DNA of 64,000 bases. Origin: Phoronis australis (lineage: Eukaryota; Animalia; Phoronida). Below are positions 9,020-50,800 of this stretch, in pieces. A program made the translations under genes and the position numbers. The stretch spans positions 322,298-386,297 of the forward strand of contig NMRA01000262.1 of assembly GCA_002633005.1 (NCBI GenBank), read 5' to 3'. The notes under the pieces are model-generated. The model was given only the letters and a program-made list of their open reading frames with translations. It was not told where the DNA came from and did no database searches. Numbering within the stretch: the first letter of the stretch is position 1; each line of letters starts with the position of its first letter.

Positions 9020-9199
9020 AAATGAGCCCTGAGCTTATTACAGCATATCTCAATGCAAATCCAACTTTTTTGGAAAGTTACATATTATCAAATGTGTCAT
9101 GTGATCAGCTGGAAAGACTGCTACTTCGAAGGTCATTAATTGAAAAACAAATAACGGGAAAATGTGCCGAGAAAGCAGTGCAGACTTTGGATGTTTCTG
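9020..9199 (+). CDS. PDE10A: PDE10-like exon 1 in window ([34 protein letters not shown]...)
   Basis: ttccag acceptor ending 9019, G|gtaagt donor at 9200. Resembles the PDE10 N-terminal 'AYL..HP..L..FV' helix. ATG at 9022, but the acceptor implies an upstream exon. Confidence 0.8.
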
Positions 9200-24100: not shown

Positions 24101-27100
24101 GATTTTCAGATCTCTATGTAACATAGTTCACAATGTAAATTTGTCATTCAAATGTTCCGGACGAGCATTTTCCAGTAACCATCTTTGCAGAAATTTCGTC
24201 TGCACATGCATTTCCACCATTTTGACAGCTCATGCTGCCCATCGCTTGTATACTAGAGCTGTGAATGCTTCTTGCACTTGTGGGACCAACTTTTCAGTTC
24301 TCAGTCAACGAAAAGCCACATTTTAAATATGCTGTTCCAATTTTCAGGATGACCGTTTCCCAGAAGGCATCATTGTAGATGGCTCATCTGCACAGTCTGT
24401 TCTGGCACAGCCTATAATGAACTCCAGTGATGACTGTGTTGGTAAGTTACTAGGACAATTTCGTTGTTAGACTGTTCTTGACCCTGACCCAGTATAGTAG
24501 TCTCTAGTGCAAAATGAGAATCTGAGACATCTACACTAATTATTGCACAATTTTCTCTTACCTTACACAGGTAGATTTTGCACCAAAGCAATTGACAGAA
24601 TCATCCTATTCTCAGTTTTTGCAAATGCTTATTTCATGGTTACAGATGCTGAACATGTTACCATGTAAACTATGGTAGTTGCTAACACATTCTTAAATAT
24701 GTCAGTCTATTAATTTGTGTTGACCAGGGTCTAGTCATCGTTAAGAAATAATTCTGTAGATGTAAGAATCTTATAACGGAAGTTCCTGTGACCATGTGCT
24801 TGGTATAATAGCAACATATCTCGCAAACTCTTATGTAATCATGCATTTCTTCAAAGTTCTTACATCTACGTAATGCACTTTTTGATGTCAGGTGCAACGG
24901 TGCTCTCAAGTCACTGAATCATCCTATTCTACTAGAGTGTAAACAGACTAGGCATTATAATAAGAATAACTGAAATAAAAATGAAAGTTATTGACAATAA
25001 TAGACTTTAGTTATAGAGGATATATTATATCACATGTGTAGGCCAAGGGCCAAGTTAAACTTACATATATCGTCTATTACTGCAGGTAAGTTGAACTCCA
25101 CATTACAGAACAGTACATTTTACTTATCACCATCATGACCAGTGGGCCGGAGACCTTACTCAAAGGTCTGGGTCGGAGACCTTACTCAATGGTCTGGGCC
25201 GGAGACCTTACTCAAGGGTCTGGGTCGGAGACCTTACTCAAGAGTCTGGGTTGGAGACCTTACTCAAGAGTCTGGGCCGGAGACCTATTAATTACTCAAG
25301 GGTCTGGGTCGGAGACCTTACTCAAGGGTCTAGTAGTGTCGTCTAGTGTGTTTTGAACCCAGCATTTTTAAAGCTGGAAGGCAGTAATTCATCTGCTAAG
25401 CCACAATGGCTCCACCGCTTGGTGAAAATAGCACAGATTTAGACAGATCATGTTCCCACATCATCGTCTCAACACTGAGAAGTTACAATGGCAGTTGTTG
25501 TAGAAACCTCGATATCAATGAAAATTCAGCGCCATTGCATTGTTATTCGTACGACTGTGTTTGGTTAGAGCCCTTCCGGTTCCGCCTCCTTGTGTTGTCG
25601 GCTGCGAATTAAACTCGTTAAACGTCACTCTTTGTCTAGTTTATCTGGCTCAGTCAGTTTGCAGAAAAATTTAAGGAAACATAATTCCCGTTATCTTCTG
25701 TATTGTTTTTAATTAACAATCATTGGGTTTTTAACTGTTGTATCTTTTCCTTGTGCAACCCTTATCAATCGTTGAAGTGCACCTAGGGCTAGGTTTTGGT
25801 GCATGTTTTAAGTATCCCTAATCTCTTGCAATAATATAAAATATGTACTAGTACTAAGGTTTGTCCAAATGGCTTACTCAGATAACATGAAACTTCAATT
25901 GCCTTACAGGAGTGATAGAACTGTTCAGAAAGGTTGGCCGGCCACCATTCGGTACAGAAGATGAGGAGGTATTTAATGTTAAATGTTTCATTATGTCAAC
26001 AAATAACTGTAATGCGTGAAAGTCATATTAATTAAACAGTGATTTAAAACATGCACAATAACATTGTTATAGTGACTGTTGTCTCTGTTGTTAGAGTTTA
26101 CACACTGTAACCATATTAAGAGACAAAATTCACGGAATTTTGACAATGTCTGCATAACAGATTGTTTTGATGTTTCACCTTGAATTTAATTTGTAGCTAA
26201 GAATATTGTTTTGATTCTCTGCAGCCACAAGACTTTGCATTGGTAGCATATTACCACATTTTGTAAAAGAACCATATTAATCCAATAAAGCTCACATAAA
26301 ACTCACTATTTTGTAGACAAAATGATTCAATCTTTACACAGAGACCACTTTGCAAAAATTACGTGTGTGGCTATTTTGTGCAAAGCATTTTATCAAATGT
26401 TAACTTATAGATCAATATATGGAATGATCACATCTTAAAACAGAGGCCATTTTGCAAAAAATAACCTCAGGGATGCATCAGTCTGTATCTCAGTGTTACG
26501 TTTTTGTGTCTTGGAAATTGACCTCACTTACTTGCTATTGACCAGGTTGCCTCGTCATTGATATTGTGGAATTTGTTAGCCGAAAAGTATTATGAGGTAA
26601 CACCGACTGGGTTGGAAATTGGGCTTCTTTGTTGTACCATGGTTTACTTAAATTCAACTGAATTCATGATATGAAAGTGTGCACACAGTCATGGTTACAT
26701 AGTAATGGTTTGAAACACTTTAAGGTTAATATACTGGACCACATTGCCATGTCTGCGGACTTAGCCAAATATATACAAAACTATAGTTTTTAACTAAAAT
26801 ACATACTTACTAGTGAAAATACAAAGCCTTTTTAATTTGATTTTTGACATTTTCACCAATCCATATCATGTGACAATGTCTTTATAGTAAAATTTAGCAA
26901 ACAATGAAGTCAATTATACGATTAAATTTTATTTGATGTAAATGCTCTATATGAGATCTTCATATTTTGCTAGTTTTTTAAAATATCATTTTGTTGATGT
27001 TTTCATGGAAATCCTATATTATGATTGTCCTCATGCACAAGAGAAACATTTCAAAAACAATTCCTAACAAGACATAAACCAATCAGAAAGTTTCATATGT

Positions 27101-30100
27101 CTCCAAGCTGCCATTTCTGAGATGTAGCTGTTCCTAGGTTAGCCAAACTTGGACATTTCTGAGATGTACTGTTCCTAGGTTAGCCAAACTTGGACATTTC
27201 TGAGATGTACTGTTCCTAGGTTAGCCAAACTTGGACATTTCTGAGATGTACTGTTCCTAGGTTAGCCAAACTTGGACATTTCTGAGTTGTACACAACCTC
27301 AAGGTGCTATATTGTCACATTGCCTTAGCAATCAATTCAAAAAAGAGGACTGGTATGGTTCAGTTTGGGTGAACATGACAACAAATTAACAGAAATGAGA
27401 GATTAAAGGCTTTCTGTAAGTTGTGTAATCAGTAATGACTGAAAGATGTATGAGGCACACGTTTTGTTGACAGATTATATGCATTTTGAATCAAAAGTAG
27501 ATACATTATCGTATTTATTCTGTGGTATAACCGAGAAGTCCTTCTTCCTCGTATGTAGATAGCGACTTCCACCCGCTTTGGTAGAATCTTGCCATTGGCC
27601 TATTAACCATTTGATGTCTAAATCAACACAGGAACATCAGATCAGCGGTAAAGCACGAAATCCAAGTCTTGATAAACGATAAAATCTGACCAACTGCATA
27701 GTATTGCATATAAGTATACCTTGGCCCACCTAATATCACTTACCAGTTGGTGAAGCAAAATAAATTAAAACTAATACTGGATTTATATTTCAATTCAGCG
27801 ACGTTGCATCCTCATTGCGAGGATTTTCACTAACAACTGCTGGGGTTATGAGCTGAGCACCACCACGGCAGTTGCTGGTGAAAGGTGATCACAATGAGGA
27901 CGCAGTGTCACTCAGTTGAAGTGTAAGACCAGCATTAATTTTAATTTATTTTGCTGTAGTTCTAAGAATTTGTTTTGCTGATAATATCACTTACCCTTGA
28001 AACCATTTGTGAGGAGAAATTTTTTAAATCTTAATGTTGATCATATCAATATATTTCAATTCGCCTTTTGACAAATGACAACTAACTTGTGAATTACAAC
28101 TTACTGAGAAATCACATCTAATAATGAGTAAAATTCCTAGTAGATGAGATCAATTATCGTTACTTTAAGTAATGAAAGCAGTGACGTTTTACTGAAAGCT
28201 CCAAAGTGACAAAAATGTAAATAGAAGTTGGTTAAAAGAATGTTATTCCAGAGTGCTTGTCACTGCTGGTTTGCTCGCTTGCTCACAGTTTTGGACAGTT
28301 TATGGAAAAATAATGTTGGAACGTCTACTATATATCGCCTTGTTTAGAGTTAAAGTTTTCACAAAGTCTCTGGGAGTGGTATTAAGGACACATTTTTGAA
28401 GTCAAAATTGTAGACTAAGACAAACTGATTATTGCTACAATAAGCTGTTTTTAGAGTTTGATTTGCACCAGTATCAATAATTTTCTATGCACTTTTACAA
28501 AATTGTTAGCTGAGTAGTTTCTAGAAGAAATTATAATGTACTTGTTATTGTCTAAAAATAGCTTTTATCACTTTTTGCTTTAAATTGGTAACTTAAAAAA
28601 ACTCTTTGCACAATTTTGTGTTCTGCGGTTCATCCAAAAAATAAAAATTTACGCTGATCTGAATGTTCATTTGGTTTCAGTTGTCAAAATTAATTGTGGC
28701 TTTCAGAATTAACCTGTCTGTTAATTCATCTTTACTTAAGGATGAATTACTAAAATTTGACCCAAACTTGATGGAAGTGATGTCTACTGACCTTCTACTC
28801 CCACCCCCCACTTAGCCAACTTGTCCCTCTCCCCTGGGGTTACTCGTATTCATTGTTGTATGGGGATGGGAGAACTAGCAATGTAATACTATGGACAAAA
28901 ATAAGGCTATAATCCAATTTGTGCCAAATTTACTTTACTTGTCTGGCTAAAGGCCAGGGACATTTAAACCCTCCTTTCATCATAATAAACAACTCTCCGT
29001 TTTGTAGTCAAGTTGGAGATGACTGCAGGGCTTTAAAAGAACTTACAGTATGTTATGGCTCTACCATGTGTCATTTCATGCACCAAGCAATCTCTACCAT
29101 GTATCATTTCATGCACCAAGCAAGCCCTACCAAGTGTCATTTCATGCATCAAGCAAGCCCTACCAAGTGTCATTTCATGCACCAAGCAAGTCCTACCAAG
29201 TGTCATTTCATGCACTAAGCAAGCCCTACCAAGTGTCATTTCATGCACCAAGCAAGCCCTACCAAGTGTCATTTCATGAACTAAGCAAGCCCTACCATGT
29301 GTCATTTCATGCACTAAGCAAGCCCTACCACGTGTCATTTCATGCACCAAGCAAGCTCTACCATTTGTCATTTCATGCACCAGGCAAGCTCTCAAGAAAT
29401 AATGAAATGTCAGTTCAATGCCCACTCTGAATCACTTCTGGTATAAGTATGGAACAAGTTGAGACCAATTGGATTGGTACTGGTATAAATAAAAAATATG
29501 CATTAGCTTTGATTGCAATTTGAAGGTGGCCAAATACAACAGTGAATGAAACTGTTGAGTTTCTTAATGTACAATAATGTGAGTGTCAAAAAGTTAATAT
29601 CCTGAAAATTCTAAGATACATTAGCATTATTTAGCGGAATTTGGGGTTTAACCTAGACAAGAGCGATCTCCTGAAAATAACTCGATAAGAGTCATAGCTT
29701 TTGGAAGAATCTATGGTAGGTTCATATATAAACAATGATAGTGGAAGGAGGGTAACTTTGTTGACAAAAAGCCTTCAATTTGGTAGGCCTATATAGTTCA
29801 AATCCCCAGTACCACACCCTCATACAAATTGGGGCGAGTACCCTGGGGGCTTGTCTCCCATCTGGTTGTATTCTTGTCTGACTCCTATGTTCACATATAC
29901 ACGCAGACTAACTTTCACCGTTTTGTCTAACTTTTACCTCGACAGATTTCTGGAAATTACCTGGTTTGGGGCGGCATTGCTGTGTACTATGCTGAGGTAC
30001 AGACTCTGTTCTTGAATCACAACACTTGTTGTAGAGTTCTCAAAGTTGCTGAATCCTTGTTTTTTACCAGTGTTCATTGGTTTTGAATTGTTTGTGGCAA

Positions 30101-33100
30101 TTGAAACTAGATGTTTTACGACTTTTCACAAAGTTTGAACTTTTCCAATGTCTAATTTTTAATTGGAAAAATAACTTTTACACAAGTAGGTAGTCTGATG
30201 ACTACGGGGCTCTTCTGGAGGCACTTACTAAATGTTCACACAATTATTGCTACTAATGCCAACAGACGGGGCTTTGAGGCTTTTCTTGTACCCGCATCAA
30301 ATATCAAGATTCTTTTCGATTTATAAACTGAAAAGTCTATCAGATTTGAATTATATCCATTTTATTCACCAAACTTGGGTCCAGCAACTTTAAGTATGAT
30401 TGTGATAGCTGAGTAGAAGCATGCCATGGATGGTTTCTTAAGATGTGGACGACACATTGTTTATGCAATAAGTCGCATGCGGTTCATTAAAGACATTTCT
30501 TTTCCTTTGTTTGCTGCTAAGTTTAATTCATTGAACAAGTCTTACCAACTAAAAGTTGTCACAAAAGTGAGAACATTTTGTAAAATGGAGTCCTGAGTTC
30601 TTTGCATTTTAACTAAGTTGATTTGCCTTGATATTAATTTTGGTTTGGGTTATTTTTTTAAGCTGAAATCAAAAGAAAAAGTTTGGAGGTGATTTCTGTA
30701 GCCACGTATACAAAAGCTTTTTATCCAGGTAGTCACACCTGCCAACTCATTGGGCTCTTATTTGCATCTTGTATTTCAAATTTGTCTATTCTACATTTGG
30801 TACTGCCATTCTTCACTAAATAAAATAACCAAAATCCCATTTTACAAAGGCTGTCTACTTTGCTCCAAATAGTGTCAGCTTAATAAAATATCCTCACAAC
30901 ATGAAACACATAATCAACTAAAACCGTTCAATCTTTTTGAGAAATTTGATAAAATAAAAATTTCACATGACAATAACAGAGGATCTTTTTATTTTCAATC
31001 CTTGAAATTTTTCAGAGAATTGATTTCACATGACTCTGTTCTTATATGTTCTTGTTTCAGTTGCCCTTGGGGTTTCTGTTTCATATGTTTCCACTTTAAT
31101 TACAATAAATCTGCTGGGCACAACTTTTTGGAAAAAGGAACACTTTTTATCATCAGGTGCACCCAAAGGGTCACAGGTTCAAACATGGTCAAGAATATCC
31201 CTGATCATGTATTCACCATGTTTACACATCGTGACTTTTATTTTCCGTTCTGTAAATATAGGGACCCCATGATGACCTTTCAAGTACTTTCCACGTTTGT
31301 CTACTCAATATTTTATTAAGCTTTACGCAAAAAACTTGCTGTGACATTTGTGGTTCATATTGTGTATTCAAACTGCAGTATTATCACGACTCAGATGGCC
31401 GACGTATTTAATGAGACTCTTTGCGCCACCTATTGGCAAACACTGCAGCTTCCTTCATAGCCTATCTGTCTTTATCAAATACCAACTTTCGTGTAAGATG
31501 GCACAGTTTCCATATAACCGTGTTCTGCATGCAAGACCAGCATTTATGTGTGAATTATTAAACTAATACCTGGAAGATTGCTGATGCCTATTGCCTTTCA
31601 AAGAATATTTCCATTCATGTGCATACTGTTGTCTCTGTTACCCTGGCCAGGAGGCCATTAATGAGGTATTCTGGTGCACTTTTGTTTGAGTGATTTGTTT
31701 ATAATTTTAAATACCTTTGAGTAATTTAGTAACTGTGTTGTTGCTGTAAATCAACAATTATTTCTGGGTTTGCTTATGGGAGTAATTATTTGTGGATTTG
31801 TGTTTGATTGGCCATTGTTGATTCCAATTTAGATGGTGACAAATCCCAATCTAACCTCTTTGTACACTTGCTATGTTTTGCACTTTTCCACTAATGATAT
31901 GTTTTAAAACCATTAATTAAAATTTCACATACACTAGATTTTGTGACTACAGTTTGATCTACTCGCTTCTTGATTAGTGTATAATTGTAAAGTTCCATGT
32001 CAAGCAAAATTAAAAATCTGGATAAATCATGTTAGCTGTGGTGGATCAGTCTGATGAAGCAATCACAGGCATGCTACTTAGCCATGTTAAAAACCCAAAA
32101 CAAAGGGTTTCACCACAAAAAATATCTTAATAGTGCAATGATTTTCAGACGTGGCCTTGCGTGGGGCTTTCAAAAAATGTTCTCACCAGTCTATTTGGCT
32201 GATGTGGTTAATAAACTTTTCTTTCTCATTTCTCTAAATTATTCCCATCGTTGCCTTTTGAAAGCAATTTGTTTCATATTTATGAGACTACAAAGTTCGC
32301 CATGCAACCTTCCATAAAATACAACAGCTGATTTTCATTGCAAATGTTAAATGCAATTTAACTTAAGTGTCAAAAAGGTTTGAGTATTTGTGAAAGGGTT
32401 TAGCTAATAAGTGTGTTCATTTCCTGTTGTAGATGTACACCGTCATGATGAAACAAAAAAAACTGAATGAGTTTCTGCTGAATGTCACCAAGTAAGTCTG
32501 ATTTTGATGGTGTGCTCATGTAAAAACTACAAGTTGACCATACAGTGAGCAGCAGCAGCGGAGGGGATTTATAGCCCTGATGGAGGGAGAGCGCTAATTA
32601 ACAGAGGGATAGTAACAAAAGTGATACTTAGATGATGGGTGGTGAACAATGCACTTTTGTTAGACCTATTATTACCGTTAGACCTATTATTACCGTTAGA
32701 CCTATTATTACCGTTAGACCTATTATTACCGTTAGACCTATTATTACCGTTAGACCTATTATTACTGTTACTTAATTACTGCGCATTATTATCACCATAA
32801 CTGTGATTTCACAACATCTATTTTTGAAGGTATCCGAAGATGCTGCCTTCAAATATTATTTAAGATTGTGCATGTGGTCTTACGTATGTTTTTCTAAAGA
32901 ACAATAATGAAAATATTGTACTCACGTGCCTTATGTTATGTGGTCTCGCTCAAAAGAATCTATGATACGTAAAGAAATGTAGTAATGTGTGTGTGTGAAT
33001 GGTATCATACAGTGAACTATTGGTAACGTGCATATATGGATTGTTCTAAACTCCCTCGACCCTCTCAACCCACAACCCCCATGACCCACATCCCCCATGA

Positions 33101-36100
33101 CCCACAACCCTCTTGACCCACAACCTGTAGCAATAGATATATCTTTGCGCTTTTATACATGTTTCATAATCATATTATGTAGCTGAATGACTTTCCCATG
33201 AGACTTACCTACACGCAAACCTGCTCTGGCTGAAGTCTGGTGGTTAAAAAACAGAAAGTTATGTATAACATCACCTGAAATAGCAAATGGTGAGGGTGCT
33301 ACCATTGTCAAGTAAATAGTTCCATGAGTGGCTAACAATGGCCATGCAGTTTTACTAAACTTAGGGAGAACATGACGGGATATAATTTCACGTTTTTATT
33401 ATTTGCTTTCTGTTGTATATTCGTTTACAATATAGTCCATGTACCATTGAGTTAATTTTAGTTAACAGTTTTTTCAAACTAGTTACTGAAGAAATTACAT
33501 ATTTGCCATTTTCTCACATTCTCCCCCAAAAACTTGAATCTGCCATTCACTGAGGAGCAGATGAGAGGATTACACTTTGCTGGAAACGACATTTGTAACA
33601 ATGATAGGACTTTGATTTGATTTGGCTGCGTTGTTTTTTTTTTCTGTTTTTGGCTTTCAAACTTGCCGAATCGACTCTTAATTGCAGGGAAAAACCAATG
33701 GAGCTCACGGCCCGACTCGTTGGTCCTGCAAGTCAGCACTTGTTCTATGTTCAAACAGAGTCAAGCTTGTGTAGACTGGGCCAAGGGGGTTGTGGGCTGG
33801 GGGTCGAGGGGGTCATGGGTCAAGGGGGTTGTGGGTTGAGGGGTCGTGGGGTGTGGGGATCAAGTGGGTTTTAGTTCAATCCTGCATTTATCAACAATCA
33901 CTGCTTACACATGACCAGTGCAACTTTTTGACATGAATTCTGTTTTAGGTCCATATTCCAAGACATAGTCAGCATGGACACACTTATTATGAAAATTATG
34001 GTAAGTGAACATTTAGTCCAGACTATCAAATAAGTATTTCTTAAGTTTGAATTAAACAATGTGAATTGGGATGACTGGACATTAACCCACCTTTCATCAC
34101 AAGCAACATATACGCAGCTTTCAACACAAGAAACATTTTTTGTCTTTAACCACTCACTGTCATCATGGTGTTTAATTGTTTCTTAGTCAAAATAGGTGTG
34201 ACTTGGGCTTCAAACAATCTGACTGTTTGTCATTGCTAAAGACCATTCTGTATAATTTGGTTTGTCACGGCTTGCCATTTTATTCATCACACATGGTCTC
34301 AAGGGATAACAAACTGTTAGTTCTTTGTAAGACCTATATAAACTCATTTGAGTAAGTCAAGTCAAGACCATTTCTATAGTGGAAAGCAAGCCTATGAATG
34401 ATTTGTCAGAGTTGGAAACAAGATGGTGCTTGCTATATAACTGCAAGTTGCATATGTTTGTTATTATGTCATGATTTTTCCATAATTTGGTAACAAGCGG
34501 GTTACAAAAAGCCATACCCATTGTTGTTATGTTTACTTTTGTGGTGAGGGGCAAAATTTTTTTTATTGTTTCTTCTTTAGAAACTGGATGAATGTTTATA
34601 AAGTATTACGGCTCTATAAGTTTAATGGTAACAGGATGCCTTATTGTTAAATAACCTTTAAAATAAGTAGTAGACCCATAAACCTAATATTTTTAAAGTA
34701 ATTAATGATCACAGAATCTTGTGAATGAAATCAATGCCTAGTGATGATTGAAATATCATAATTGCGTTTTTTTTCTAAACCACTTTCCATGGGGATTGCC
34801 AAATTTTTTGCAATCACCCTCTTTCACCGGAAACTTGCAAAGTCCGTTTCTGTACTTAGAATTGATGTTTGTGGAAATAATATGACAATCTCCGTGAAAA
34901 GTAGATTATTTAAGAAACCCAATCACATCATTGTAAACTTGTGGGTATTATTCTAGTGCACGTGAAAAGACTCTTGATCAAGTGGATTTTTAAAATATAT
35001 ACTTGTGTGGAGCTACTACTATTAATATGTAGTCATTTCTTGGTAATGAGGTTGTATAGTTGTTGGTAGAGTTCTTGGTAATGAGGTTGTATAGTTGTTG
35101 GTAGAGTTCTTGGTAATGAGGTGGTATAGTTGTTGGTAGAGTTCTTGGTAATGAGGTTGTATAGTTGTTGGTAGAGTTCTTGCTCAATGTTGAAATATAT
35201 CAAATGGTCTTCATAGTCCTTTAAAGGTATTTAAGGGCTTGTTATCTTGAAAGTGTTTTAGTCATTTTGGCAGATTTTACCATCTCCAAAAAGTATTTTC
35301 AACCTCCTTAGTTGATTTTTATTAAAACGATATTATTAATAATAATTATTCAAATTGCAAGTGGGATGCTCTATGCAATGCAAAGACTGTGTGTCAGATT
35401 GTGGTTGAATTGTTGAATTAGTTTTATTTCCTACTCTGTTATCTTTGCTTATTGACAAATGGTTATTCTGGGGTTATGTGGATATTTTGATTAAAGTTAA
35501 AATGTATCAGAATAGAGAAGCAACAAAACGCTCCTTACTTAAGTCAGGACCTTTCTTAAGTCACCTTACTTAAGTCACCTTACTTAAGTCAGGTGACAGG
35601 TGAACTCACTGCATCAATCTTCTTCTTGTCATTTTCATTAATTTCATGTTTATTGACATCCGCTAAAGATTCAAAATTTGTTTTGTAGCAATTAAACTGT
35701 GCCAAATTTAATACAAAATGCCTTTGAAAAAGGTAACGTTTATGTGATATGAGTGAGAAATGCATAGTGCAGCAATAACACCATTGACATGTCTTCATAT
35801 TTCAACATAGAATTTTGCCCAAAAACTGGTGAATGCTGATCGGGCTTCCCTGTTTCTCTTGGATAACTCGACAAATGAGCTATTTGCACGGATATTTGAT
35901 GTGGGCAATGGGATTGCCCAGAGTGGAGATGACCAAGAAATAAGGTTCAATAGCATGCTCTCGTGTATACCTTCCTACACTCAGTACACTTGCCAAGCCT
36001 AACAACTAAGACAGAAATTGGCTTCCAATTTTAGCAATACAAGAAGCTGTCGCCTCATTTTCTCGAAAGTTCTTCTGAAACTCATCTTTTCCCACAAATA

Positions 36101-38854
36101 TGTTACAATTCCAGTTTTACCTCTGGCTCAGATACCATCTGAGCTTCAGGCTAACAAGACAAATTAAAATCATGCTCAGACTTTGTTAATGGTGAATGCA
36201 GTTGAAGATTGAACACCTTTTCAAAAGGTTGGCAAGTGTGTGTTTGTTGTATTGACCATCTGTCTGCACACACAGGGTCAATGCACATCAGTGTCATGAT
36301 TGTATTATTTTGACCCTACAGCCCACACCCTCATTGTTTTGGTAGTCATGACAACTCATCAGATGGGGCAAATGATGCTTGTTATCCTCCTGCAGATTAA
36401 GAGCCCACATGCACGTTTGTGCTTGTATGCCATTATATGCCATAAAGAATTTTTTCTTCAAGAATTATGATAAAGCAGAATTCAAAATTTAGTTGAGAAA
36501 ATCATGGGCCCATTAGGAACGCTCCGTAGGATTGAAGAATGAGTAGCCTCAAAGTAAAATGTGGGAATGATCAAATATTTGCAGAAAACGACAATAACTG
36601 CAGTGAATTGGGAAGAGCTTAATCCAACGGTTTTGAGCTGACAATGAGTATAAGGTGTGAACTACTGCACAAATTTTGCATCACAAAAATATGATGAATT
36701 TTGAATTGAAGTAAAAGTACTGATCTCCATAGCACCAGATAGCAGCAATAGTCAACAATCCCATATGATCAGAGCACATTGTGTTGTAAAAAAGTCTCGA
36801 TGTTATGCTTTGTGAAAACATGCCGCTATCAATCAGACCTCTTACCCCCCAAATTATTATTGTTTGTTTGTATGTTTTCAACAGAATTTTGCCAAAAAGT
36901 TAGTACATGCCGACAGAGCATCATTGTTCTTGGTGGATAAGCTAACAAGGGAACTCTATGCCAGAATATTTGATACCGGAAAACTGACCGATGAGTCGCA
37001 CAGTCCCAGTACTGAGCGCGAGATAAGGTTTGGCATCTTAGTGAATTTCTGCTTTCACTCTCAGTAATGTTTCCTACTTGGCTGATTTGTTTTATTGTAC
37101 CAACTATAAGTTTCCTCTTGATAACAAACCTACATTGTAACAATCCATTTCAACAGCACTGTGTGCTCTTAAATGCGCTGTGGTGGAAAATAAGCTTATT
37201 ATTTTAAACCTATGACTGTCTTTTGCTCCCATGTCTTTTGTTGTACTTGTGGCCTGCTTTAGTGATTTTCCTTTTTGTTGTTGTTGTTGTAGTGATGTTC
37301 TTTTTGCTTGCTCACTGCATTTTTTATTCGTTTGTAGTCAGGTAAGTGTAGTCTGAGTACTTTAAATATGACAAAATTTGTTTTAATTATTTCTGATACA
37401 GTCTCATTGCTAGTTTTAGGTTAATTTTTGTTGCAAATTTGTCATAGCTGCCGTCACTGCAATTTGTCATAGCTGCCGTGACTGCAATTTTTTTTTGTTA
37501 ATTATTAAATCACACAATTGGCAGGCTTTGCAATGTCCATCTGTTTTTGTGTAATGCCCTTATTGTGTGGAGCCTAACTCAACAGATGGCAGTCAAATTA
37601 TGCACTGACAGTCATGTCACTGGTTTGGAGATTTGAATCTCAGTATGTCTAATCTCTGACCCATTTCTTGTGTTTTAAAAAATACTCTTTATTTGGGTCA
37701 GATATTGTAGAATACAGTTGTGTCTTTTTGAAGTTTCCTGTTGCCATGGCGAAATTCATTGGCTTCGGCTTCTGCACAAAATAATTGCCAAAGTTTCTTA
37801 TAACAGTTTTCAACAACTATTCAGTACAAACATTTATTTCTGATGAGAAAATTGAAGAAAATATGGTTGAAGTCCTCCATAATGCTTGCCAAATAGGTCG
37901 AGATGAATTTCATTTATCTAAATGATTTGAATTAAAACTTTGTTTTTTGACGTAGGGCAGGTTTATACCAGCACGAATGAAATTGTAGTTACAATACTTT
38001 AAACACTCATGGCATTTTTTATAATGTTTTTATAATGTTTATTACGAAATCTTCGATACAATGAATATTCATAACCCAGAAAGCACCAAGAGGCATTATA
38101 TCTGGGTTAAAAAAGTACAAAGAAATCTATATACAATTATTTTACACAAAATAAGAAATCTATATACAATTATTTTACACAAATACATAAATTAAAAAAA
38201 AAACTGTTGTTAAGATTACAATGACACATGGTTACGAAAGTAAATAAATCATTTTCATACACATGTACACAATTCTATCCACTCACACAAAGAGATTTAA
38301 TATTATAAAGAAATTTCATGGCTATTCCTGGTTCATTATTTACAATATTCCACATGTAGCCTGTATGATTATCACTGGATTCAGTCGGATAACATGGATT
38401 TCATTCTATGCAACAAGTGATATTAATTCTCTGAGCATAGTCACTCATGGCTACTTTGTGTGCATTCAGATAAGGAAGGGTATATATTTAAGACTTACCT
38501 GTGACTTGTCCATGTAGGTTTCCTATGGATAAGGGTGTGGCAGGGTACGTGGCCTCTACTGGCGCTATACTCAACATACCTGATGCCTACGCTGATGACA
38601 GGTTTAACAGGTATGCAGCTGTTATCTATATAAAAAAATTCCAATATATTTTAATATTATCAACCTTTAAGAAAATAGCATGTGTATTTTTGTCAAGGAT
38701 GTCCATAAGAATTTCAATAACATATTGCAAAATGTTCGCCTGAGGCTATATGGAGTTGACAGCCGGAGTACGCTTTGAAGTTTTTAACACTGCCAAAGCA
38801 ACGTATGCAAGGTTGAGGAAAATCAGCATCTTGGAAATGTTTTTATGCACCCAC

Positions 38855-38885
<31 letters not shown>

Positions 38886-41800
38886 GGAGAGTGTGTGTTT
38901 GTCACATTTTTCCCTGTGTGTGGGTGGGCGCAGGTGGTTACCAATCGTTTCTAATTGCTGTCGGTACAACGATAGCTTGAAGACTGGTTCGTTCACAAGC
39001 CTACTCAAAACGTCCGAAGTAATGTCTGTTTTATGCTCCAGCCAGTGTGTTCGTATGTTGTCATTTTGTCCAGGCATCAGTGTCTGCTCGAAATCTCAAA
39101 ACCACCTTGTCGAATTTTAATTAAATTCGGCACAAGGGTGCGTGGGCTTCACTAGAATGGTGCGTGCCACTTTTTAATCTGCTCCGCTTCCTGGGGTCAG
39201 TCAGGGGCGTGGCTTTTGCTGTATTGTTGGGAAGAGCGTTTCTGGATAGTACCTAGAGAACGGCTCTATGGATTTCAATGAAACTTGAAAGAAAGGTGTT
39301 TTATATCAATACACTATCACACTTAAATTTTCAGGTGGATTTAATCACTGCAGCACCTCCTAGTGGTCATTTTGTTCTTGGTGGCGGGTTCTTTCAAGTG
39401 TTGTTTTGGGGGCCAAATGATATCTAAAGAACTGATTGACTGGTTTCATTGGAAATTAAGACACAGGGGTATATGATGAGGTTGCACTGGCACCATTGCA
39501 TTTTTTGGCGGATTAGACAACTGCGGCACCTCATAGTTTTGGCTTTTTTGCTTCAGAGAGTTTCCAGATGTTATGTAGAAAACTGAGTGAAGGATTAATT
39601 TCAATTGAAGTGTTGTGGCAAAGGTATGTGTTGTCAATGTGCCAGCGCCATCAAATTTTCGTGTGCATCTGACATCCGTCAACACGTACCTTCTAAGGGC
39701 CATTTTATTCTTGACAAGGACTTTTCATGTGCTTCTTTGGACGGGAAGAGCATTTCCGGATGATATCAAGAGAACCGATTGACAGATTTCAATGACACTT
39801 GACATAGTGGTATATCATGAAAATGCGCCAGGACCATTTGACATTGGGGTGGATTTGATGACTGCAGTGCCTCCTAGTAGCCATTTTGTGTGAGAGCATT
39901 TTGAGATGTGTAGAGAACAGATTGAAAGATTTCAATGAATGTTGACATAGAGGTATTTGATGTCAATGTTCTTGCACCATTAAATTTTCAGGCAAATTTG
40001 ACATCTGTAGCCTCTCCTGGTGGCCATTTAGTTTTTAAAAATATGGTGGTTTTTAATTATTGTTTGGGGAAGAGCATTTCTGGGTGATATCTAAAAACAG
40101 GTTGACACAGAGGTAGAATATGAGATTGTGTCAGTATCATTTAAATGTTGGGCCAATTCAGCAACTGCAGCACCTCCTTGTGTCCATTTTGTGTGAGAGG
40201 ATTTTCAAGTATTGTTTGGGGAAGAGGGTTTCCGGAAGATATCAAGGGAACCTAAGTGGCAGACTTTGATAAAACTTAAGACATAGGTATTATGATGCCA
40301 ATGTGCCGGCACCATTTGATTTTCGAAAGCATTTGACCACTGCAGCACCTGGAAGTGGCTATTTTGTGGAAGATAACTTCCAGATGTTATTTCTTGAACC
40401 AATTGATGGAACTTGACACAGAGGTTGATTTCAAAGCGTTACTCCATTAAATTTTTGTGTGGATTTGACCACTGCAATACCTCCTAGTGGTCATTTTGTT
40501 CTCAAGTGGTTCTCACGTATTGTTGGGGGAAATGAGTGAGTTCTAGATGATATCAAAAACCAATTGAATGATGTCAACAAAACTTGACACAACTATGTAT
40601 GATGTCAACAAAACTTGACACAACTGTGTATGATGTCAATGCACTGGATCCTTCATTTTCGGAGTGTCAATTCGTCCACTGCAGCATCATGACTTTTAAG
40701 GAGCTTTTCAAGTTTTGATTGGGGAAGAGTGTTTCTGGATGGTATCTAGAGAGCTGATTGATGAATTTCAATGAAACTATTACAAAGTTATATATGATGA
40801 CCATGTGCTGGCATCATTTTTGTTTTCCACAAGAGGTAACTTTCAAGTGTTGGTTAGGGGAAGAGCTTTTTGTATTATATCTGGAGAATTGATTGACAGA
40901 TTTCAACGAAACTTGACTCACTGGTACATTATGATAATGCACCAGTGCCATGTGATTGCCGGGCTAATTCATTTACTGCAGCACCTCCTAGTGGCCTTTA
41001 GAACATATCATACACTATGCAACATGGGGGCATTGATATGCCTCCATGTTGCATAGTGTATTATACTCTTGTTATAGAAACTGTGAGGGTCTGCCAAAAC
41101 AATGTGCTTTGAAATGCTTTTGAACATGTCACTTACTATGGACAATCCCTTAATGAAATACCATAGTTGATTTAAACTTCTCAGAAACAAGTCGTCATGG
41201 TGGATAAACTTAAACAAGCAGAGTTATTAACCTTAAAACTGCATGTATGTAACAGCAAATCAAGTTAATATTAATGGTACTTGTGATGGCTATGATTCGA
41301 TTAAAATGTAGACTGTGATTTATTGTTTGCCATTGTCTAATTTTTCATACACAATTTATGTATTTGCAGAGATGTTGACCTTCAAACGGGCTACACAACA
41401 AGAACAATACTCTGCATGCCTATCTACATCAGGGGAAAGTAAGTAAATATTTAATACTTAAGATATTTTGTATTCATTCAAATTTTTATTGGCCCACATA
41501 TTTGTAAGTGGGTGCATTATGTCATCATTATGTCATCATTCCTGTCCATCCATCCCGCGTCCACTGCTCTATCTCCAAAACCATAGCGGATGGGCATGAG
41601 CTGTCTTACAACATCTCTTGTGGTGCTTTTTATTGCCCATCTTACCAGAGATTACCTATTATACGTTATTTACCTGTATTCATTATATTGTAATTGTATT
41701 AGTCATAATAAATGACCTTATATCCCCTACCTCGGTTTCCTTTTCATCTCTGGTAACGAGCTTGCGACGCACGTATCATTTATCTTTATTCGGGACATAT

Positions 41801-44800
41801 GTTGATCATATTAATTGCTTTCATGGATGGAATGGCATGGCCAAACTTTTGGATGTACTTCCCTACCAGTGTGCCCCCTTGTGGCAATTTTTTACATTGA
41901 TCTCTGTATCTTCAAAGGTCTTTAATGGATTTTCATAATATTTGGCATATAAGCATCTACTATCTTGCTGTTTTTGGATGAATTTAGGTATTTTGTCCCA
42001 CCTAGTGGCCATTTTTACTGTTTTCAAGTCCAGCCTTCTGCCAACCAAACCACTCTAAAAATGCTTCAGAAAATTGGCATATAAATTCTTACTGTAAAGA
42101 GGACTGCTGACGATGATTTTCCAGCGACTTCAACTGCTGTGTCAGGTTTTTTTTTACACCCATGGCTGTATCTCCAAAGCCCTCTGCAAGATCTTGAATA
42201 AATTTAGCAAGTGTATTTATATGAAATTGACAATGGATGACAACGATTTTTGGAGGAATCCGAGTTGTAACTGGTGTACTCCCTTTTAAGTGGCAATTTA
42301 ATTTTTTTATGTTTACCTCAGTCTATATCTTCAAAGGCCCTCAATGGATTTTCATAAAATTTGGCAAATAAGCATCTTCTAGTGAAGTGACGCTATTTTT
42401 CTGTTTTCATATGGATTCGAGGTATTTTGCACTACCTAGTGGTGTTTTTCACTGTTTTCAAGTTTGTTTTTGGCACCCACTCTTCTGTCAACCAAACCAC
42501 TCTAAGGATGATTGTGAAAATTGACATATATGTTCTTACGGTGAAGACAATGGCTGATGATGATTTTTCGACAAATTTGACTACTGTGGCGCCTCCTAGT
42601 GGCAGCTATGGTTTTTGGCTGTATCTCTTAAGCCCTCCACAGGATCTTTATTAAATTTAGCACGTGTATTTTCATGTGAGTAACAAGGGACGATGATGAT
42701 GACTTTCAGACGTATCCCATGAATGGTGGGCTAATTTCATTTTCTTTCTGTTTTTCTCTGTTTCTCTGAAGTTCCTTGCCGGTTTTTCTTGAAATCTGGT
42801 AAACAACTTTCTATTAAAGAAGCAATGACATGTTCCCGTGTTTTGCATGGATTTGACATATTTCGTGACATCTAGTGGCTATTTTTAATGTTTTCTAGTC
42901 TGTTTGTGGTGTCCGCCCCTCTACCAACCAAACCAACCTAAGGATGATTTTAAAAATTGGCATTTATGTTTTTACTGTGAAGAAGACGGTTGTTTGCATG
43001 GCTATCTCCCAAACCCTCTGCGGGATCTATATTTAATTCGGCAAGTGTATTTATACGAAGTTGAAAACGGCAAATTGAATGGATCCAAGTACCGCTGCAC
43101 CCCCTAATGGCAATTTTATTTTTTCATTACTTCCTTATCTTTGATATATTCTGCGCCACTTGGTTGTCATTTAAAAAATGTTTGAGTGTGTTTTTCATCC
43201 TTTCCATACACCAAACCGCTTGAATGCTTATAGTAAAATTTGGAGATGTGTTCTTGATCAGAAGGTTGAGGCTAACGCTCAGGGTTTTCGAACGTGTTCA
43301 ACTACTTTAGCCCACGAAGTGACAACTTTGCTTTTCTTGCGTGCGCGGCTGTATCTCCTTTACCCTTTACAGGATCTTTCTGAAACTTAGCAGATGTGCT
43401 AATTTTAGGCTAATTTTAGACTAATAGAGCTGTGCTCCCTAGTAGCAATTTTATTACTTGGCGGAATTCTTCGAATTCCGACAAGTATGTTGCTCTGTCG
43501 TCAAGTTTTTTTTTGTTCGCACTGTACAGGTCGCAATTTTCGTCGGATTCTCACGAAATTTGCACACGACGTGTAGATTGGAAAGTCCTGGAAGCCTATT
43601 GTTTTTGGTCATGATCAAATTCAAAAAAGGCGGACATGGCGGCCATTCTGTTTCCGATTTCAGAGTCAAATGCTCATAGAGGCCGCATTTTTCGACGTAC
43701 AGGGCTGAAACGTGGTACGATTATTATAGAACACATGTGCTACAACTGTGCCGAAAATCGTTGACTTCCAGTCAAAGATGGCGGAAATATTGGAAGTGGC
43801 GCATGCACCCCTCGATATCTGGCCGAAAACGTTTTCTCCTGTAGAGGGCGCATTGGCGAACCAATCACTTTCAAACTGGTCACGTGTTTGTTGCTTTTAA
43901 TCGGCTTTTATAAAATTTTGTTTAACCGGAAGTCACTTTCAAGATGGCGGCTGTGGCGCATTTTCACCCATTTTCAATTGTTCTGCTCTCGCATTTTTAA
44001 TGGGAAGAGCAAATGATGTGAATTTTTGCATGTTGATTCCTTGAAGTATGCTCTTTCAAACGTTCTGCGGTAACGTTTTTTCAGACTTACCGTTTTCGAG
44101 TTATTATACTGAATTTCAAAAAAACCCGCAAAATTTCAATTTTTTCGAAAAAATTATAGAATGTTGCGGAAATATCAATTTAGATAAAGTTTGGAACGGG
44201 CTTTCAGGAGAAGTTTTCCATTTTTCACTAGGACGTCTACTTTTTGTATTATTTGAGATTTTCTGATATCGCTGTTCCTTTGTTGAGCGCTCTAACTGCA
44301 TTGATGTTGGTTTAGTTTATTTGAACAAGACTGTAGTTTATTTCTTACTAATTTATGACATCTAAGTTCGTTGTATGAATGTTATGATGTTGTTCATCAT
44401 TGCCACCTTCATCATCGCAGTCATTGGCGTTAATTTTGCCTATTGTCGCTCAAGTCTGTAGGTAAGCACTGAACAGCCAGGCCGCGGCTACGGAGCATTT
44501 TCTAGTCCCTAGAATTTATGTTGAGGGCGTGTGTCAGGTTTGGCGGGTGGTTTGAGGAAATTGTTGACAATTGCCAAGAAACTTATTTACTTGTGTTTTT
44601 GAATGAGAAAAGCCAAGTTTTACCTACTTTTGATGCAAACTGGTGGCTGTCATTTGCTATCAACCCTTGTCGTCTGCTGTCCGAGAAAGCGGGTGCGATT
44701 TCAGGTGGCTGTCAGACAGATTAAATTTGCCAAAAAAGTAAATGGTAAGAGGCTTACTATTACCACATAGTTAGAATCTAGTGAGGACGAGCATTCTGAA

Positions 44801-47800
44801 TCTGTAGTCAGACTCTTTCTAGCACTTGCAGGGAAGTGGATATTTTGGGGAGAAAATTGTCAAATTTGGCGTTTTTTGCAAATAGTTTTGTGTGCCGGAA
44901 TTTTCTTGCCAATCAGAAATCTGTACAGTTCGGTAGAGTTTTAAACGGGCTTTCATAAGATATTTTTAATTTCTCGCTAGTCGTCATGATCGTCGTCGTC
45001 GTCCTTCCCATCGTCCTCTGTTCGTGTAATTTCGCCAAGTGACGCTCCTCCGAGCGCTCTCGTTTTTTATGTTTGCCTCTGTAACTCCAGAGTTCCTTGA
45101 TGCTTTTCCATGAAATTGGGCAAACAAATTTCTGTTATGAAGATGACAGCAGCTTTCCTTGTTGTGATGGCCGGATTCTGCAACAACTAGTTTTCATAAT
45201 TTTTTAGTCTGTTTTTTGTCGTTTGCTGTATCTTCCAAAATGCGCAGGCAGACAGGCGCTAGTCGGATATAATGGACCCTAACTTATTCCAAATAAATCC
45301 ACTAAATGTAGGTCTAAATGAATGTTTTTGGTATCCTTGCATTCCTCAGACATCTGGCTATCCATACAAATCCTTTTCACGACCCTCAATTACTCTAGTC
45401 TATAACTACGCTATTCCGAACTCGGTCCAATTTAGCCACGTGCATCGTGAAATCGTCAGCCATTTCATGGAACTTACTATATCTAGCGCTATCTATCAGC
45501 GATTTGCTACAACGCGCTGTTCCTTTTACATCAGTCAACGTCATTGGTCGATTTCGTCAATTATTAATGTCATTGTTATTATAATCATCGTACGACTGCT
45601 CTCGTCATCTGCACTTTCGTCGTCTCTCTCATGATCGTATCTGTCATCGTCATGTTATCGTTGTCCATGTTGACTGATGAAAAAGGAACAGCGCATGTTG
45701 TAGCAAATTGCCAATAGATGGCGCTAGATATAGTAAGTTCCCTGAAATGGCTGCCGATTTCACGATGCGCGTGGCTAAAGTGGGCCGAGTTCGGAATAGC
45801 GTAGCTATAGACTAGAGTAATTGAGGGTCGTGAAAAGGATTTGTACGGATAGCCAGATGTCTGAGGAATGCAACGATACCAAAATCATTCATTTAGACCT
45901 GCATTTAGTGGATTTATTTGGAATAAGTTAGGGTCTATTATATCTGACTAGTGCCGACAGTCATTATGAAAATTGGCAATTGTGTTCCTACTGACAAGAG
46001 CATGACTGATGGGGATTTTCAAATGCATCTAACTACATTGTCATCTAGGGCTGTTTCTCCTAAACCCCTTGGAAGATGTTTTTAAAATTTTGTAGTTGCA
46101 TTCCTATGAACTTGACAGCAGTCACTGTGGTTCATATGGCAGTTTGTTTCTTCAAGTTTGTCTTTTTATCTTTGGAGTTCTTTTACAGATTTTCATAAAC
46201 TTTGGAAAACAATTTCGAGAAACAACAACACAATCCCATTTTTGGATGGTTTCAATGTATTGTGAGCCACCTATTGGTCAATTTTATGATACAAATAAAC
46301 ACCCCCAGAAGAGCACCATTTGCGGTGCAGTCTTGGGTGCATTCCAATCCTCTGCTTTGTTCTTTGTTTCTGTTGACAAAAGATAATTATTTTAATTTTC
46401 AAAAATTTGAGATTTCCGTCCCTTATTGCCATTTATTTTTTATGTGTTACCCAATGAGAATCTGATAAATATAATTGGCAGAATTTCCTTTTCTCATTTT
46501 TTCAAAAAGTTTGTGAATGTCCTTAATTTGCCAACATATTGTATGATAGTAGCTGCTGTGTATGGATTTTGAAAATGGTTCACAATGACTTCCATTAGTG
46601 CTTGTGGCTTATGGTTTTACAAGAAAATAATTCTTCGTTTTTCTGCCATGTGGCTAAAATTAGAAAGACTTTCTGGTAATAGTTTGAGATTTTCGAATTC
46701 GTCAAAACGGAAAATTGTTAGCTTGACTATTTTGTCTTTTATTGATGTCTTTAAAAATTTCATTAAATTATTTGAGTACAGTTTTTGGCCAGGATTTGCT
46801 CTGCACTTTTAGAATATTTACATTAAGCGTGTTTTTGAGTGTTCATAACAGTTCACCTTTTGCATGAGGTTAATTGCAGTTGTTTAATTGGGAATACAAG
46901 TATTCATTATCAGGCCCCACTCATTACGGCGTTTTCCCTTTGCTCCCAACTTGTTCAATTCTGTAGCCCAACAATAAGTTGGGAAGTTTACCCTTGTATA
47001 GCCAATATCTTACACGACTGATTAACTCCATTCTGGCTTTCATGATTGGAGGGCCAGCTCTCTTTTGTTCGATAATTGCTCTAATCTTGAATAATCGTAC
47101 CTAGCCTGACTGCGCTTTGCTGTTCAAAATAAAAGTTAAGTTATACCGTATTTGAACATAAACCAATAGCATCTCTGAAATCCTCGTCAAATGGTGATCA
47201 TGTTTAGTTTTTGAATCGCCAAAATTGCCCAACTGCAACAGAAGTTACGATAATCTATTCTTTCTGAATGTACCAATTCACTCTGGGTTTGACGGTGTTC
47301 ACATGTGGTCTGTAATAAGCCTGGTAGATAATTAGCGTGCCTGTTATCATAACAGATAAAAGACTGTGCTTGGCAGTTAACAAAGAAGTTAGATATTATC
47401 ACATGCTCAGAACCCCCTTCGTCTGGTAAAGTCACTGAACGGGAAAACGCTTTCATGTGATCGACCACCCTGTATCTGCGCTCTTGCTGTAAATGTGTCT
47501 ACAATATAATATTATTCCCCAAGGTTGTGCTTTTTCATCCTTTGACACATATCTTATTGAGAGTGTAAGGCAAAAACTGCAATACAATGCTTCCAAACAC
47601 AAATGTTTCACATTTTTTCAGTATCATCGGTGTTGTTCAGATGGTGAACAAGTTGAACGGAACGTTTACAAAGAGCGATGAGGAGTCATTTGAAACATTT
47701 GCAGTATATTGTGGCCTGGCACTGCATCATGCAAAGGTAAGTTAATTTCAACACCTTCTGCCGTTAGGTGTCAGGTAAAACAACTGAACTTTTGTTGTCA

Positions 47801-50800
47801 AGTGGAACTACTTGGTCTAAATTGATACAAACTAGGTTGTTTTTGGGTGGCATTCTCCTTTAAGACTACTTTTATGATGGCCTAAAATCAGAACTTAAAG
47901 CCTAACTTCAAGGGAATTTTGTTATTTAATATATATTGAGTTAACCAGACAGTCCTAGCACAGCCTTAGCAAAATAAGAAAGCGTGAGTTTAATCACTAA
48001 AACGTAGGCCCGTCAAATGATTAGTGAAGTTGTCGTTTCTTGCCATATAGCGTCACCACGAGAACCCAGCACATTAAACAGCAAAAGGCTGATAACAGTT
48101 GCATTGAATAGAGGTCTGAATAGAAAACATTGAGTATCTGTGTTATTCGCAGCTGTTTAAATTAAAATTAGGCAATTGTTTTGGTGACGTAAAAAGCATT
48201 TGCCAATAACCCAAACAGCTTATTACATTTGGCACTTAAAAGCGATGCTCTTAACATAGTCAGAACCAAGTTTACTGGTGTTACTGTTCAAGATGGGCTT
48301 TAATGTCATTCAAAGGATGTAGCTAATTACTACTTGCAAATTTTAAGACCTTAAAAATAAGCTTATTTGAATTTTCACCTTGAAACTGTAGACAAACTTA
48401 CCAACTAAGATTTTATCAGTGAGAATCTTTTCCAGTTGTCTTCTTAGTTGGCTATTACTAAACATCATGCTGGGTAAGATTCTTGCATTAGAGTTCAAGT
48501 TTCACCGAATCAGATTTGCGGATTTTTTCACTGCCTATGGTTCAATCCTGCATGTTTGAGCCATCAGGATTAGACGCAAATTTTCAAGATTGATAAAATC
48601 TAAAACATTTTTGCAAATTCTGACTTTGTGTGTTTGGCAGAGGCTGTTCAATAGATTCAAGAAACTCTTGAGAAAAACTAAATGTAGCCGTGAAAGGCAG
48701 CGGAATGGATTGATTGGTTGCTCTAAGACTTCATATTGGGAATGGATTGATTGGTTGCACTAAGACTTCATATTGCTTTAATTCATACCCATTTGTAGTT
48801 ATATGACAAAATCAGGAGATCGGAGCAAAAGTACAAGGTAGCTTGCTTTAATTCATACCCATTTGTAGTTATATGACAAAATCAGGAGATCAGAGCAAAA
48901 GTACAAGGTAGCTTGCTTTAATTCATACCCATTTGTAGTTATATGACAAAATCAGGAGATCAGAGCAAAAGTACAAGGTAGCTTGCTTTAATTCATACCC
49001 ATTTGTAGTTATATGACAAAATCAGGAGATCGGAGCAAAAGTACAAGGTAGCTCTAGAAGTGCTCTCTTATCACAGTCAATGCAGTGAGCAAGAAGTGGA
49101 AAGATTAAAAGACAGGGTAATCAGTGCACCTGTTGAAGATTTCACCAGGTAAGGTCACCTGTGCATACAGAGTAATTGGAGAAAATACTGCTTCTTCCTG
49201 ACAACTTGTAGTGACTGGTCATTCTAGCTTTGATGATGAATTCTGGTTGTTGTAGTGACTGGTCATTCTAGCTTTGATGATGAATTCTGGTTGTTGTAGT
49301 GACTGGTCATTCTAGCTTTGATGATGAATTCTGGTTGTTGTAGTGACTGGTCATTCTAGCTTCTTTGATGATGAATTCTGGTTGTTGTAGTGACTGGTTA
49401 TTCTAGCTTCTTTGATGATGAATTCTGGTTGTTGTAGTGACTGGTTATTCTAGCTTCTTTGATGATGAATTCTGGTTGTTGTAGTGACTGGTCATTCTAG
49501 CTTCTTTGATGATGATTTCTGGTTGTGTTCAGCCCTCATCATGGGGAATTTTGAGTTATTTTGTTTGACTATTATTGGCGTGTACTATGCAACAAAATTT
49601 GTAAAGTTTTTGTATGTTTAAGAAACAGACATGAGCTCTACCATACTTAAAATGCTGATTCACTTGTTGGCAATTTTTGATGTCAAAAACATTTTGGTAG
49701 CACCTGGTCGCCATTTTAGTTTTTGTCAGAGTTTATCTGAGGTGCATTCCATAGATGCAAGAACCTCATAAAAAGTCAAGACCTGATGCACGACCACTTA
49801 AAATCACCCATAACTCATAAGTGAAACGCAGGTGCTCCATGAGTTTGCTGTTCCTTACCAGCATACGCTAGCAAAATGTCATCCCTTGTCCACTGATTAT
49901 TGTCAAAATGGCCAGACAGATTTTTGATGGACCTTGACAGAGAGGTTTTATGACTGTGAGAAGCACCAGCCCAGTAAAGTTTGATGGCAAAATTACTGTA
50001 CTTAAGTAACATGAAACGTAATGTCACTCAGACTTTTGTGCAGTGTTTGAATAAATGTGCTGGCCCACCGGTCCAATGTGTCTGACCCAGCTGCCAAGTT
50101 GCTGGCCCTGCTTTTAGCTTCCTATCTACGTTTTTGTCCATCTTTCCTGTACACTAAATGTGCATGTGCGTATGAACCCCATTTTTTTCAGTAACTCTAG
50201 GTGAGGAGTTGTTGGTATGAACACCATGTAAGCTGTGGTTATTAAAATAAAAGTCTTTAACTGGATTTAACCAATATATTTTTGCAAAACACATTTCTCA
50301 CTGCACAGAACTCTAGGCTAAAGTTCTATCAATAAACAATTTAGTGAATGGGGGGATCACTCATATATATTGCTCACAAGGTTCAAACTCGTTAGCATTG
50401 AATTAATTGGTTATGAAATCACATCCACATATATAAAAGGGCCTATATGTGAAAGTTTGCTGGCCCAGCCACAAATCCACTGGCCTCGGATCACCGGGTA
50501 TTTCGAATGCTGCTTATTTGTAAAAATGATCTTCATAAATGTATGTTTCCCATTCCAGGTACGATTTTTCACCATGGGCAATTGACAATGATGAGAAGCC
50601 ACTGTATGTGATAAAGATGTTCAAGGCGCTCTTTGATGCCAGTACTAAGTATAGGTAGGAGATAGTTGATAGTGATTGTCAAGTGTAATACAAGCTTAGT
50701 GTGACACATGTCTGCTGCAGGAATCTTTGGATTCTGCAGTGCAGTTCTTCCTGTTCAAAATAAAGCTGCATATCGCTCTGTTTAGCTGGATAAAAACTAA

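Follow-up and report, generated by a model that had tools for sequence, protein, structure and literature searches.

Two conserved and likely alternative copies of a GAF-B exon in a PDE10-family gene of the phoronid Phoronis australis

A 64,000-nucleotide stretch of contig NMRA01000262.1 from Phoronis australis (hereafter the window; all features below lie on its + strand) carries a long gene for a PDE10-family phosphodiesterase in which one exon of the second GAF domain, GAF-B, is present twice. Copy A (35811..35944, 134 nt) and copy B (36885..37027, 143 nt) are intact, conserved duplicates of this exon, and they are likely spliced either-or. Taken together, we regard it as quite probable that these conserved duplicates have one early origin, are used one at a time and tune the sensor while keeping the same mapped pocket residues.

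Both copies are bounded by AG and GT and run from phase 0 to phase 2, between a constitutive upstream exon ending in phase 0 (33949..34000) and a constitutive downstream exon starting in phase 2 (38518..38610). Copy A has Gln at residue 4 and Val at residue 31 and is of the ancestral-like type; copy B has Lys and Thr at these positions and is of the derived type. Over the first 32 residues 24 are identical, 16 of which are encoded by different codons. Nucleotide identity is 63/96 and the synonymous sites are saturated, the proportion of differences being 0.95 at synonymous sites (pS) and 0.159 at nonsynonymous sites (pN; Fisher p 8e-12). Measured against three single-copy outgroup exons each copy is constrained, A having a pN of 0.14-0.17 and B one of 0.16-0.25 at a pS of 0.70-1.15. 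The intron flanks (500-nt stretches) show no more similarity than shuffled sequence, an equal or higher score being reached in 86 and 76 of 300 shuffles; a 10-nt match common to both downstream introns is within chance (28/300 shuffles). A search of the window for a third GAF-B copy found none. As looked for in mutually exclusive duplicated exons, A and B are adjacent homologues of similar length that encode one protein region in equal phases, each with a full frame.

These data agree with the original prediction, made from the letters alone, which had placed exons 12a/12b at these positions and described 24 of 32 identical residues with synonymous divergence, unrelated flanking introns, purifying selection on both copies and a loop that diverges before EIR and is 3 residues longer in B. 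Its numbering fits the window because 11 exon positions precede A (from 9020, counting two small exons at 11740 and 22869). The old duplication that it proposed is supported by the saturated pS and by the pairs of relatives described below. It had also argued against an assembly artefact or a dead copy. Such an origin of one copy in this genome is most improbable: RNA reads, thin in coverage, cross junctions of neither A nor B, but the divergence of the copies, their open frames and intact splice sites, and the use of both types in relatives all speak against it.

The host gene (9020..63318) was traced by tiling its exons on homologous GAF-GAF-catalytic proteins named 'pde-5' or PDE10 in invertebrates. 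The first exon found is at 9020; homologues extend further N-terminally, so extra 5' exons may exist. From the exon at 23867 the reading frame stays open as far as the stop at 63316, whichever of A and B and whichever copy, C1 or C2, of a catalytic exon is used. PDE10A is the best match for the catalytic domain of a close relative, P0123 (314 bits versus 245-251 for PDE5 chains), and the P0123 model compares with PDE10A catalytic chains at 44% identity and a template-modelling score (TM) of 0.93. By its predicted tandem GAF domains and a class I catalytic domain nearest PDE10A, the gene is assigned to PDE10. The same gene family includes Caenorhabditis elegans PDE-5, a PDE10 orthologue (PMC12346295), and 'pde-5' is the database name on most matches; one isoform is listed for the nematode enzyme, whereas the window gene has duplicate exon copies. 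In a tree of the constitutive exons, with the alternative exons left out, the window protein lies among lophotrochozoans, nearest Owenia (SH-aLRT 83, not starred). Three raw-read runs that carry this species label, of which about 18-19% was mapped and joints were called at a threshold of 3 reads, show transcription of the host gene on the + strand; the joint 38610-41370, which leaves the exon downstream of the pair, is present in 4+1+1 reads.

The either-or use of the copies, also part of the original prediction, is borne out in relatives. Among 60 RefSeq isoforms of six species (Lineus, with 15 of its 20 members, Tubulanus, Haliotis rufescens, Patella vulgata, Pomacea and Babylonia), typed by Gln (A) or Lys (B) at residue 4, 24 are A-type and 36 B-type, none has both and none has neither. 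These are gene models and not raw reads, and the absence of isoforms with both is partly built in, because models that include both exons are frame-shifted and are discarded by annotation pipelines. Of 93 members examined from clusters of arthropods, nematodes, deuterostomes and Hydra, 91 have a single Gln4 type and 2 are without the region. At the level of genomic DNA, the best 80 of 194 matches in metagenome contigs were taken as loci, and four of them (L003, L011, L043 and L079) hold a tandem pair, always with the Gln/Arg4 copy first and the Lys4 copy second. With the window this gives five paired loci, in which the copies all have lengths of 2 mod 3 and Lys4 is in the second copy throughout and never in the first. 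In two bryozoan-like loci, L015 and L016, B is the sole copy between the flanking exons; its donors are canonical (GTA/GTG), and the catalytic pair is retained. Gene predictors mis-join or drop these exons, as in two Biomphalaria models where A and then B are joined at non-homologous points, so that the annotated PDE10 genes of snails, worms and bivalves are probably incomplete.

The reading frame provides one route to exclusivity. Joining A to B creates a stop at 36901, 1401 nt before the last junction, and skipping both creates one at 38530, 1262 nt before it. A stop in the first codons of B follows joint inclusion in all five paired loci, and joint inclusion is thus unproductive. Frame shift leading to decay is a listed route for mutually exclusive exon clusters (PMC5740500), and given the stop in 5/5 loci, decay of the double-inclusion mRNA is a likely backstop. 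Nonsense-mediated decay would remove transcripts that carry both copies or none.

The second element is the donors, weak in both copies as originally noted. On a matrix built from 24 other donors of the gene, the A donor (GTTCAA, at the start of the 940-nt intron 35945..36884) scores 0.1 and the B donor (GTTTGG, 37028..37033) 3.4, versus 6.8-13.1, and T at +3 occurs in none of those 24. GTTYG stands at the B donor site in 5/5 paired loci, GTTTGGC is identical letter for letter in the window and L011, and four B-type intron read-through proteins also imply GTTYG. The A donors of the five loci have no common consensus, and 4/5 are without G at +5. Two other in-frame donors lie downstream, at 35983 and 37063; their scores are lower than those of the homologous sites, and they were set aside. 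With both donors weak and the weakness of the B donor conserved in paired loci, splicing factors would shift recognition towards one of the exons; for this mechanism of choice as a whole, together with decay, we see slightly better than even support. Steric exclusion, judged by a donor-to-branch distance below 50 nt, is ruled out: the intron between the copies measures 281-1472 nt across the five loci, and AG-free zones are short except in L043 (46 nt before B in the window). The 940-nt spacing had already been called too long for it in the original prediction. A U2/U12 incompatibility is likewise ruled out, both donors departing from the U12 consensus.

Either-or splicing could also be real and be enforced mainly by competing intronic RNA structures, a docking site and selectors, with decay as the backstop. 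Exclusivity by docking site and selectors is of the Dscam type. RNA structures are a known route for many duplicated exons and, according to the same source, are usually unconserved over long distances (PMC5740500); the 281-1472 nt spacing also leaves no steric clash to do their work. In a coarse test (6 shuffles, ungapped stems, at most 1500 nt per intron), however, no intron-intron stem in the window was stronger than shuffles (-13.7 to -18.6 versus -13.4 to -20.5 kcal/mol), and over the five loci 2 of 15 comparisons exceeded all 6 shuffles, both narrowly and one of them pairing a G-run against a C-run. We therefore consider it unlikely that such structures are the main determinant. The prediction that exclusivity needs nonsense-mediated decay, RNA structure or trans factors finds support in the frame clash with its early stop and little in RNA stems, none of which is clearly above shuffles, and the docking and selector elements expected in the introns did not emerge from this coarse comparison of ungapped stems at five loci.

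As judged from exon sequences, the pair was likely born once, early in lophotrochozoan history, with A ancestral-like and losses later. In a 24-row tree the nine B exons of the window, nemerteans, molluscs and a bryozoan lie on one side of a branch with support 91/84, below the starred level; trees of A and B rest on about 48 columns and resolve little, and the labels of one-type species were assigned by residue 4, which makes them circular in those rows. In topology tests with the approximately unbiased p-value (p-AU), a mollusc-only clade (0.008), a nemertean-only clade (0.029) and the joint model with a separate duplication in each phylum (0.006) were rejected. The ages of the phyla would place the pair in the Cambrian or earlier (>500 million years). 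A contrasting possibility is that it arose repeatedly in separate phyla, the common Lys4/Thr31 and order coming about by convergence or exchange between copies. The short alignment leaves room for this, as does the survival of the window pair as a clade in the tests; independent origins are reported for mrp-1 (PMC7434440), and the catalytic exon of the host gene seems to be separately duplicated in spiralians versus echinoderms and hemichordates, whose pair may be a duplication of its own (weak support). Against it stand the rejection of the joint per-phylum model, the confinement of Lys4 to the second copy in 5/5 loci and the B donor common to the pairs, and repeated origin appears quite unlikely.

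Several observations weigh against a single, conserved either-or pair, in addition to the partly built-in isoform count and the small alignment. Pairing of A and B within a species was rejected in 5/7 species but not for the window (p-AU 0.115) or Lineus (0.067). Rotifer exons and one isopod exon, all single-copy, carry Lys4 and fall among B in a 47-row tree, and the long-branch A copies of L043 and L079 fall among B in a 32-row tree. While GTTYG was found in 5/5 paired loci versus none of 31 distinct single-copy exons that are followed by an intron at this site (of 32 rows, one had no intron), this count leaves out 25 rows without an intron and 10 without an end found, and its rows are not phylogenetically independent. 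GTTYG is also implied by two non-B read-throughs (P0063 and P0339), and the B exon of the bivalve-like locus L001 has a canonical donor, based on 667 nt of upstream sequence. All 55 bivalve proteins examined are B-type, and the A-type copy of the bivalve-like L011 (4735-4886) is open but drifted at otherwise fixed residues, so that A can be dispensable; this copy is possibly an unannotated or decaying exon. Finally, in the thin RNA reads of the window, depth is <1 in both A and B, like the neighbouring intron bins, and no joint of either reaches the 3-read threshold.

We then related the A/B swap to the GAF-B structure. Both copies match human PDE10A GAF-B (2zmf, residues 39-72). Predicted models of the Lineus A and B isoforms have an unchanged fold, in which the exon forms the end of helix α2, strands β1-β2 and the following loop; the loop has a predicted local confidence (pLDDT) <50 in both (430-434 and 433-442), and the models are uninformative on function. 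In human GAF-B the sheet forms the pocket floor, Phe300 of β1 is required for cAMP stimulation and its replacement by Leu abolishes stimulation (PMC4833291), while the ligand contacts include Cys287 and Asp305 (PMC6151459). In a partial list of pocket residues mapped by offset, the equivalents of human R286, F290 (Phe300 in the long isoform), F304 and D305 do not differ between A and B in any of the 11 pairs. At the Cys287 position both copies of the window have Ala, and the pocket residues are thus partly kept.

Differences between the types lie elsewhere. Residue 4 is Gln or Arg in A versus Lys in B in all 11 pairs, and residue 31, beside the Asp305 equivalent, is Val or Ile in A and Thr (8), Met (2) or Arg (1) in B. 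Human PDE10A GAF-B (2zmf) has Lys at residue 4 as in B and Ile at 31 as in A. In the β2-β3 loop B is more acidic in 9/11 pairs and A is richer in Gly in 7/11; the types show no consistent difference in the length of the loop, its SP sites or its content of Ser/Thr. The proposed phospho-regulation through a Ser/Thr-rich loop with an SP site finds no backing in these numbers: SP occurs in 3/20 B loops and 1/14 A loops, B is richer in Ser/Thr in 5/11 pairs, and a phospho-site was rejected as a conserved feature. Branchiostoma isoforms (P0429/P0433) vary the same loop by including or omitting an insert of about 23 residues and not by a duplicate exon.

With the mapped pocket residues the same and residues 4 and 31 and the loop different, tuning of affinity or coupling is the likely effect, and the A/B swap probably tunes the cAMP sensor and not what the sensor binds. 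More specifically, Gln/Lys in helix α2, Val-Ile/Thr near Asp305 and a loop that is rich in Gly in A but acidic in B would alter the affinity for cAMP, the rate of its exchange or the coupling to catalysis and would leave nucleotide specificity unswitched, a joint proposal for which we consider the chances evenly balanced. The two forms may instead be nearly equal in function and kept by partition between tissues or stages, or by unproductive splicing that tunes enzyme amount. The identity of the mapped pocket residues, the poor order of the loop in both predicted models, and the bryozoan-like loci and bivalve models with B alone fit near-equality; the persistence of type-specific residues over phyla, at positions 4 and 31 in 11/11 pairs each and with Thr in 8, does not, and we hold near-equality to be possible but doubtful.

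The GAF-B exon is not the only one duplicated in this gene. A catalytic-pocket exon is present as C1 (57192..57303) and C2 (60826..60937), each of 112 nt, and inclusion or omission of both leads to a stop. The exon holds 5/11 of the active-site residues listed for PDE10A in PMC12571622, and C1 and C2 differ at the equivalents of Val678 (Ser/Met) and Tyr693 (Phe/Met). Nemertean and molluscan isoforms include both types, as do the bryozoan-like loci, and the window C2 groups with the C2 of one such locus (L015/L016, 98/92). RNA reads fall on both (C1 bin 3.75/0.46/0 and C2 bin 5.02/4.17/1.29 in the three runs, adjacent bins 0-1.5); no C1 or C2 joint is among the 15 joints listed, a further 40 lying behind rows derived from repeats. 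This pair probably says more about function than the GAF-B pair does. The window was also searched for a third catalytic copy and for duplicates of the exons at 56608 and 62156, and none was found. In Lineus (P0079/P0121) there are alternative versions of the exon that matches 62156-62236, which has no second copy in the window.

A third candidate pair, with weaker evidence, consists of two 51-nt exons at the end of GAF-A (26546..26596 and 29946..29996). The pair is frame-neutral, its match score is 35 versus 22 for the next of 64 candidates, and the isoform sets of seven relatives vary at this site too. A Tubulanus model (P0217) has two exons of this 51-nt type in a row. Further repeats lie within the gene. 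At 48773-49053 a 70-bp unit occurs four times at 99% identity, overlapping exon 49009-49148 from its acceptor through its initial 44 nt. Three additional acceptors, each with a GT after it, thereby lie upstream. This is a very recent tandem duplication (or an assembly slip) and could be a nascent exon duplication. Short dispersed intron repeats at 60190-60416 and 62487-62620 draw in hundreds of RNA reads that stem from other parts of the transcriptome, and long intronic minisatellites occupy 52043-53218 and 55684-56346 (a 37-bp unit in 32 copies and arrays of a 26-bp unit).

Either-or duplicated exons are well known and often ancient, as tandem duplicated exon substitutions (PMC9741552) and a human catalogue of mutually exclusive exons show, joint inclusion shifting the frame in 60% of the human clusters (PMC5740500). 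The catalogued exons resemble A and B in being homologous neighbours with the same phases, lengths not divisible by three and great age. A close parallel is coq-2, whose exons 6a/6e in helminths, annelids and molluscs likewise form a homologous either-or pair within an enzyme gene. One of them is ancestral-like and the other restricted to certain lineages, and they differ in a couple of conserved residues close to the ligand site (PMC7434440). The coq-2 switch was shown to change the product, whereas A and B have the same mapped pocket residues, lie in a regulatory domain and are known here from sequence alone. Human PDE10A splice variants, unlike A and B, are described as varying chiefly towards their N- and C-terminal ends (PMC12571622). 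PDE10A, PDE11A, PDE5A and PDE2A have no match in 10 supplementary files of PMC5740500, nor has PDE in the main text and one supplement of PMC9741552. Literature searches, judged from listings and the openings of abstracts, gave no earlier description of PDE10 either-or exons, although subscription papers and other supplements may contain one. The PDE10 pair is thus apparently undescribed before, while its kind is already known.

On a broader and tentative view, which we hold less likely than not, the lophotrochozoan PDE10 gene might be a splice-programmed family within one gene, in which the A/B sensor switch, the C1/C2 catalytic switch and a GAF-A helix switch give different cAMP/cGMP preference and allosteric control and take the role of separate vertebrate PDE genes, A and B being balanced by a weak donor kept for >500 million years. 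The conserved weak donor offers a testable handle on exclusivity in two-exon clusters without RNA stems. Either-or exons of a cyclic-nucleotide sensor that recur across phyla are natural paired variants isolating two residues and one loop of GAF-B, and the A/B pair is therefore a ready test of how GAF-B sets its affinity and passes on its signal.

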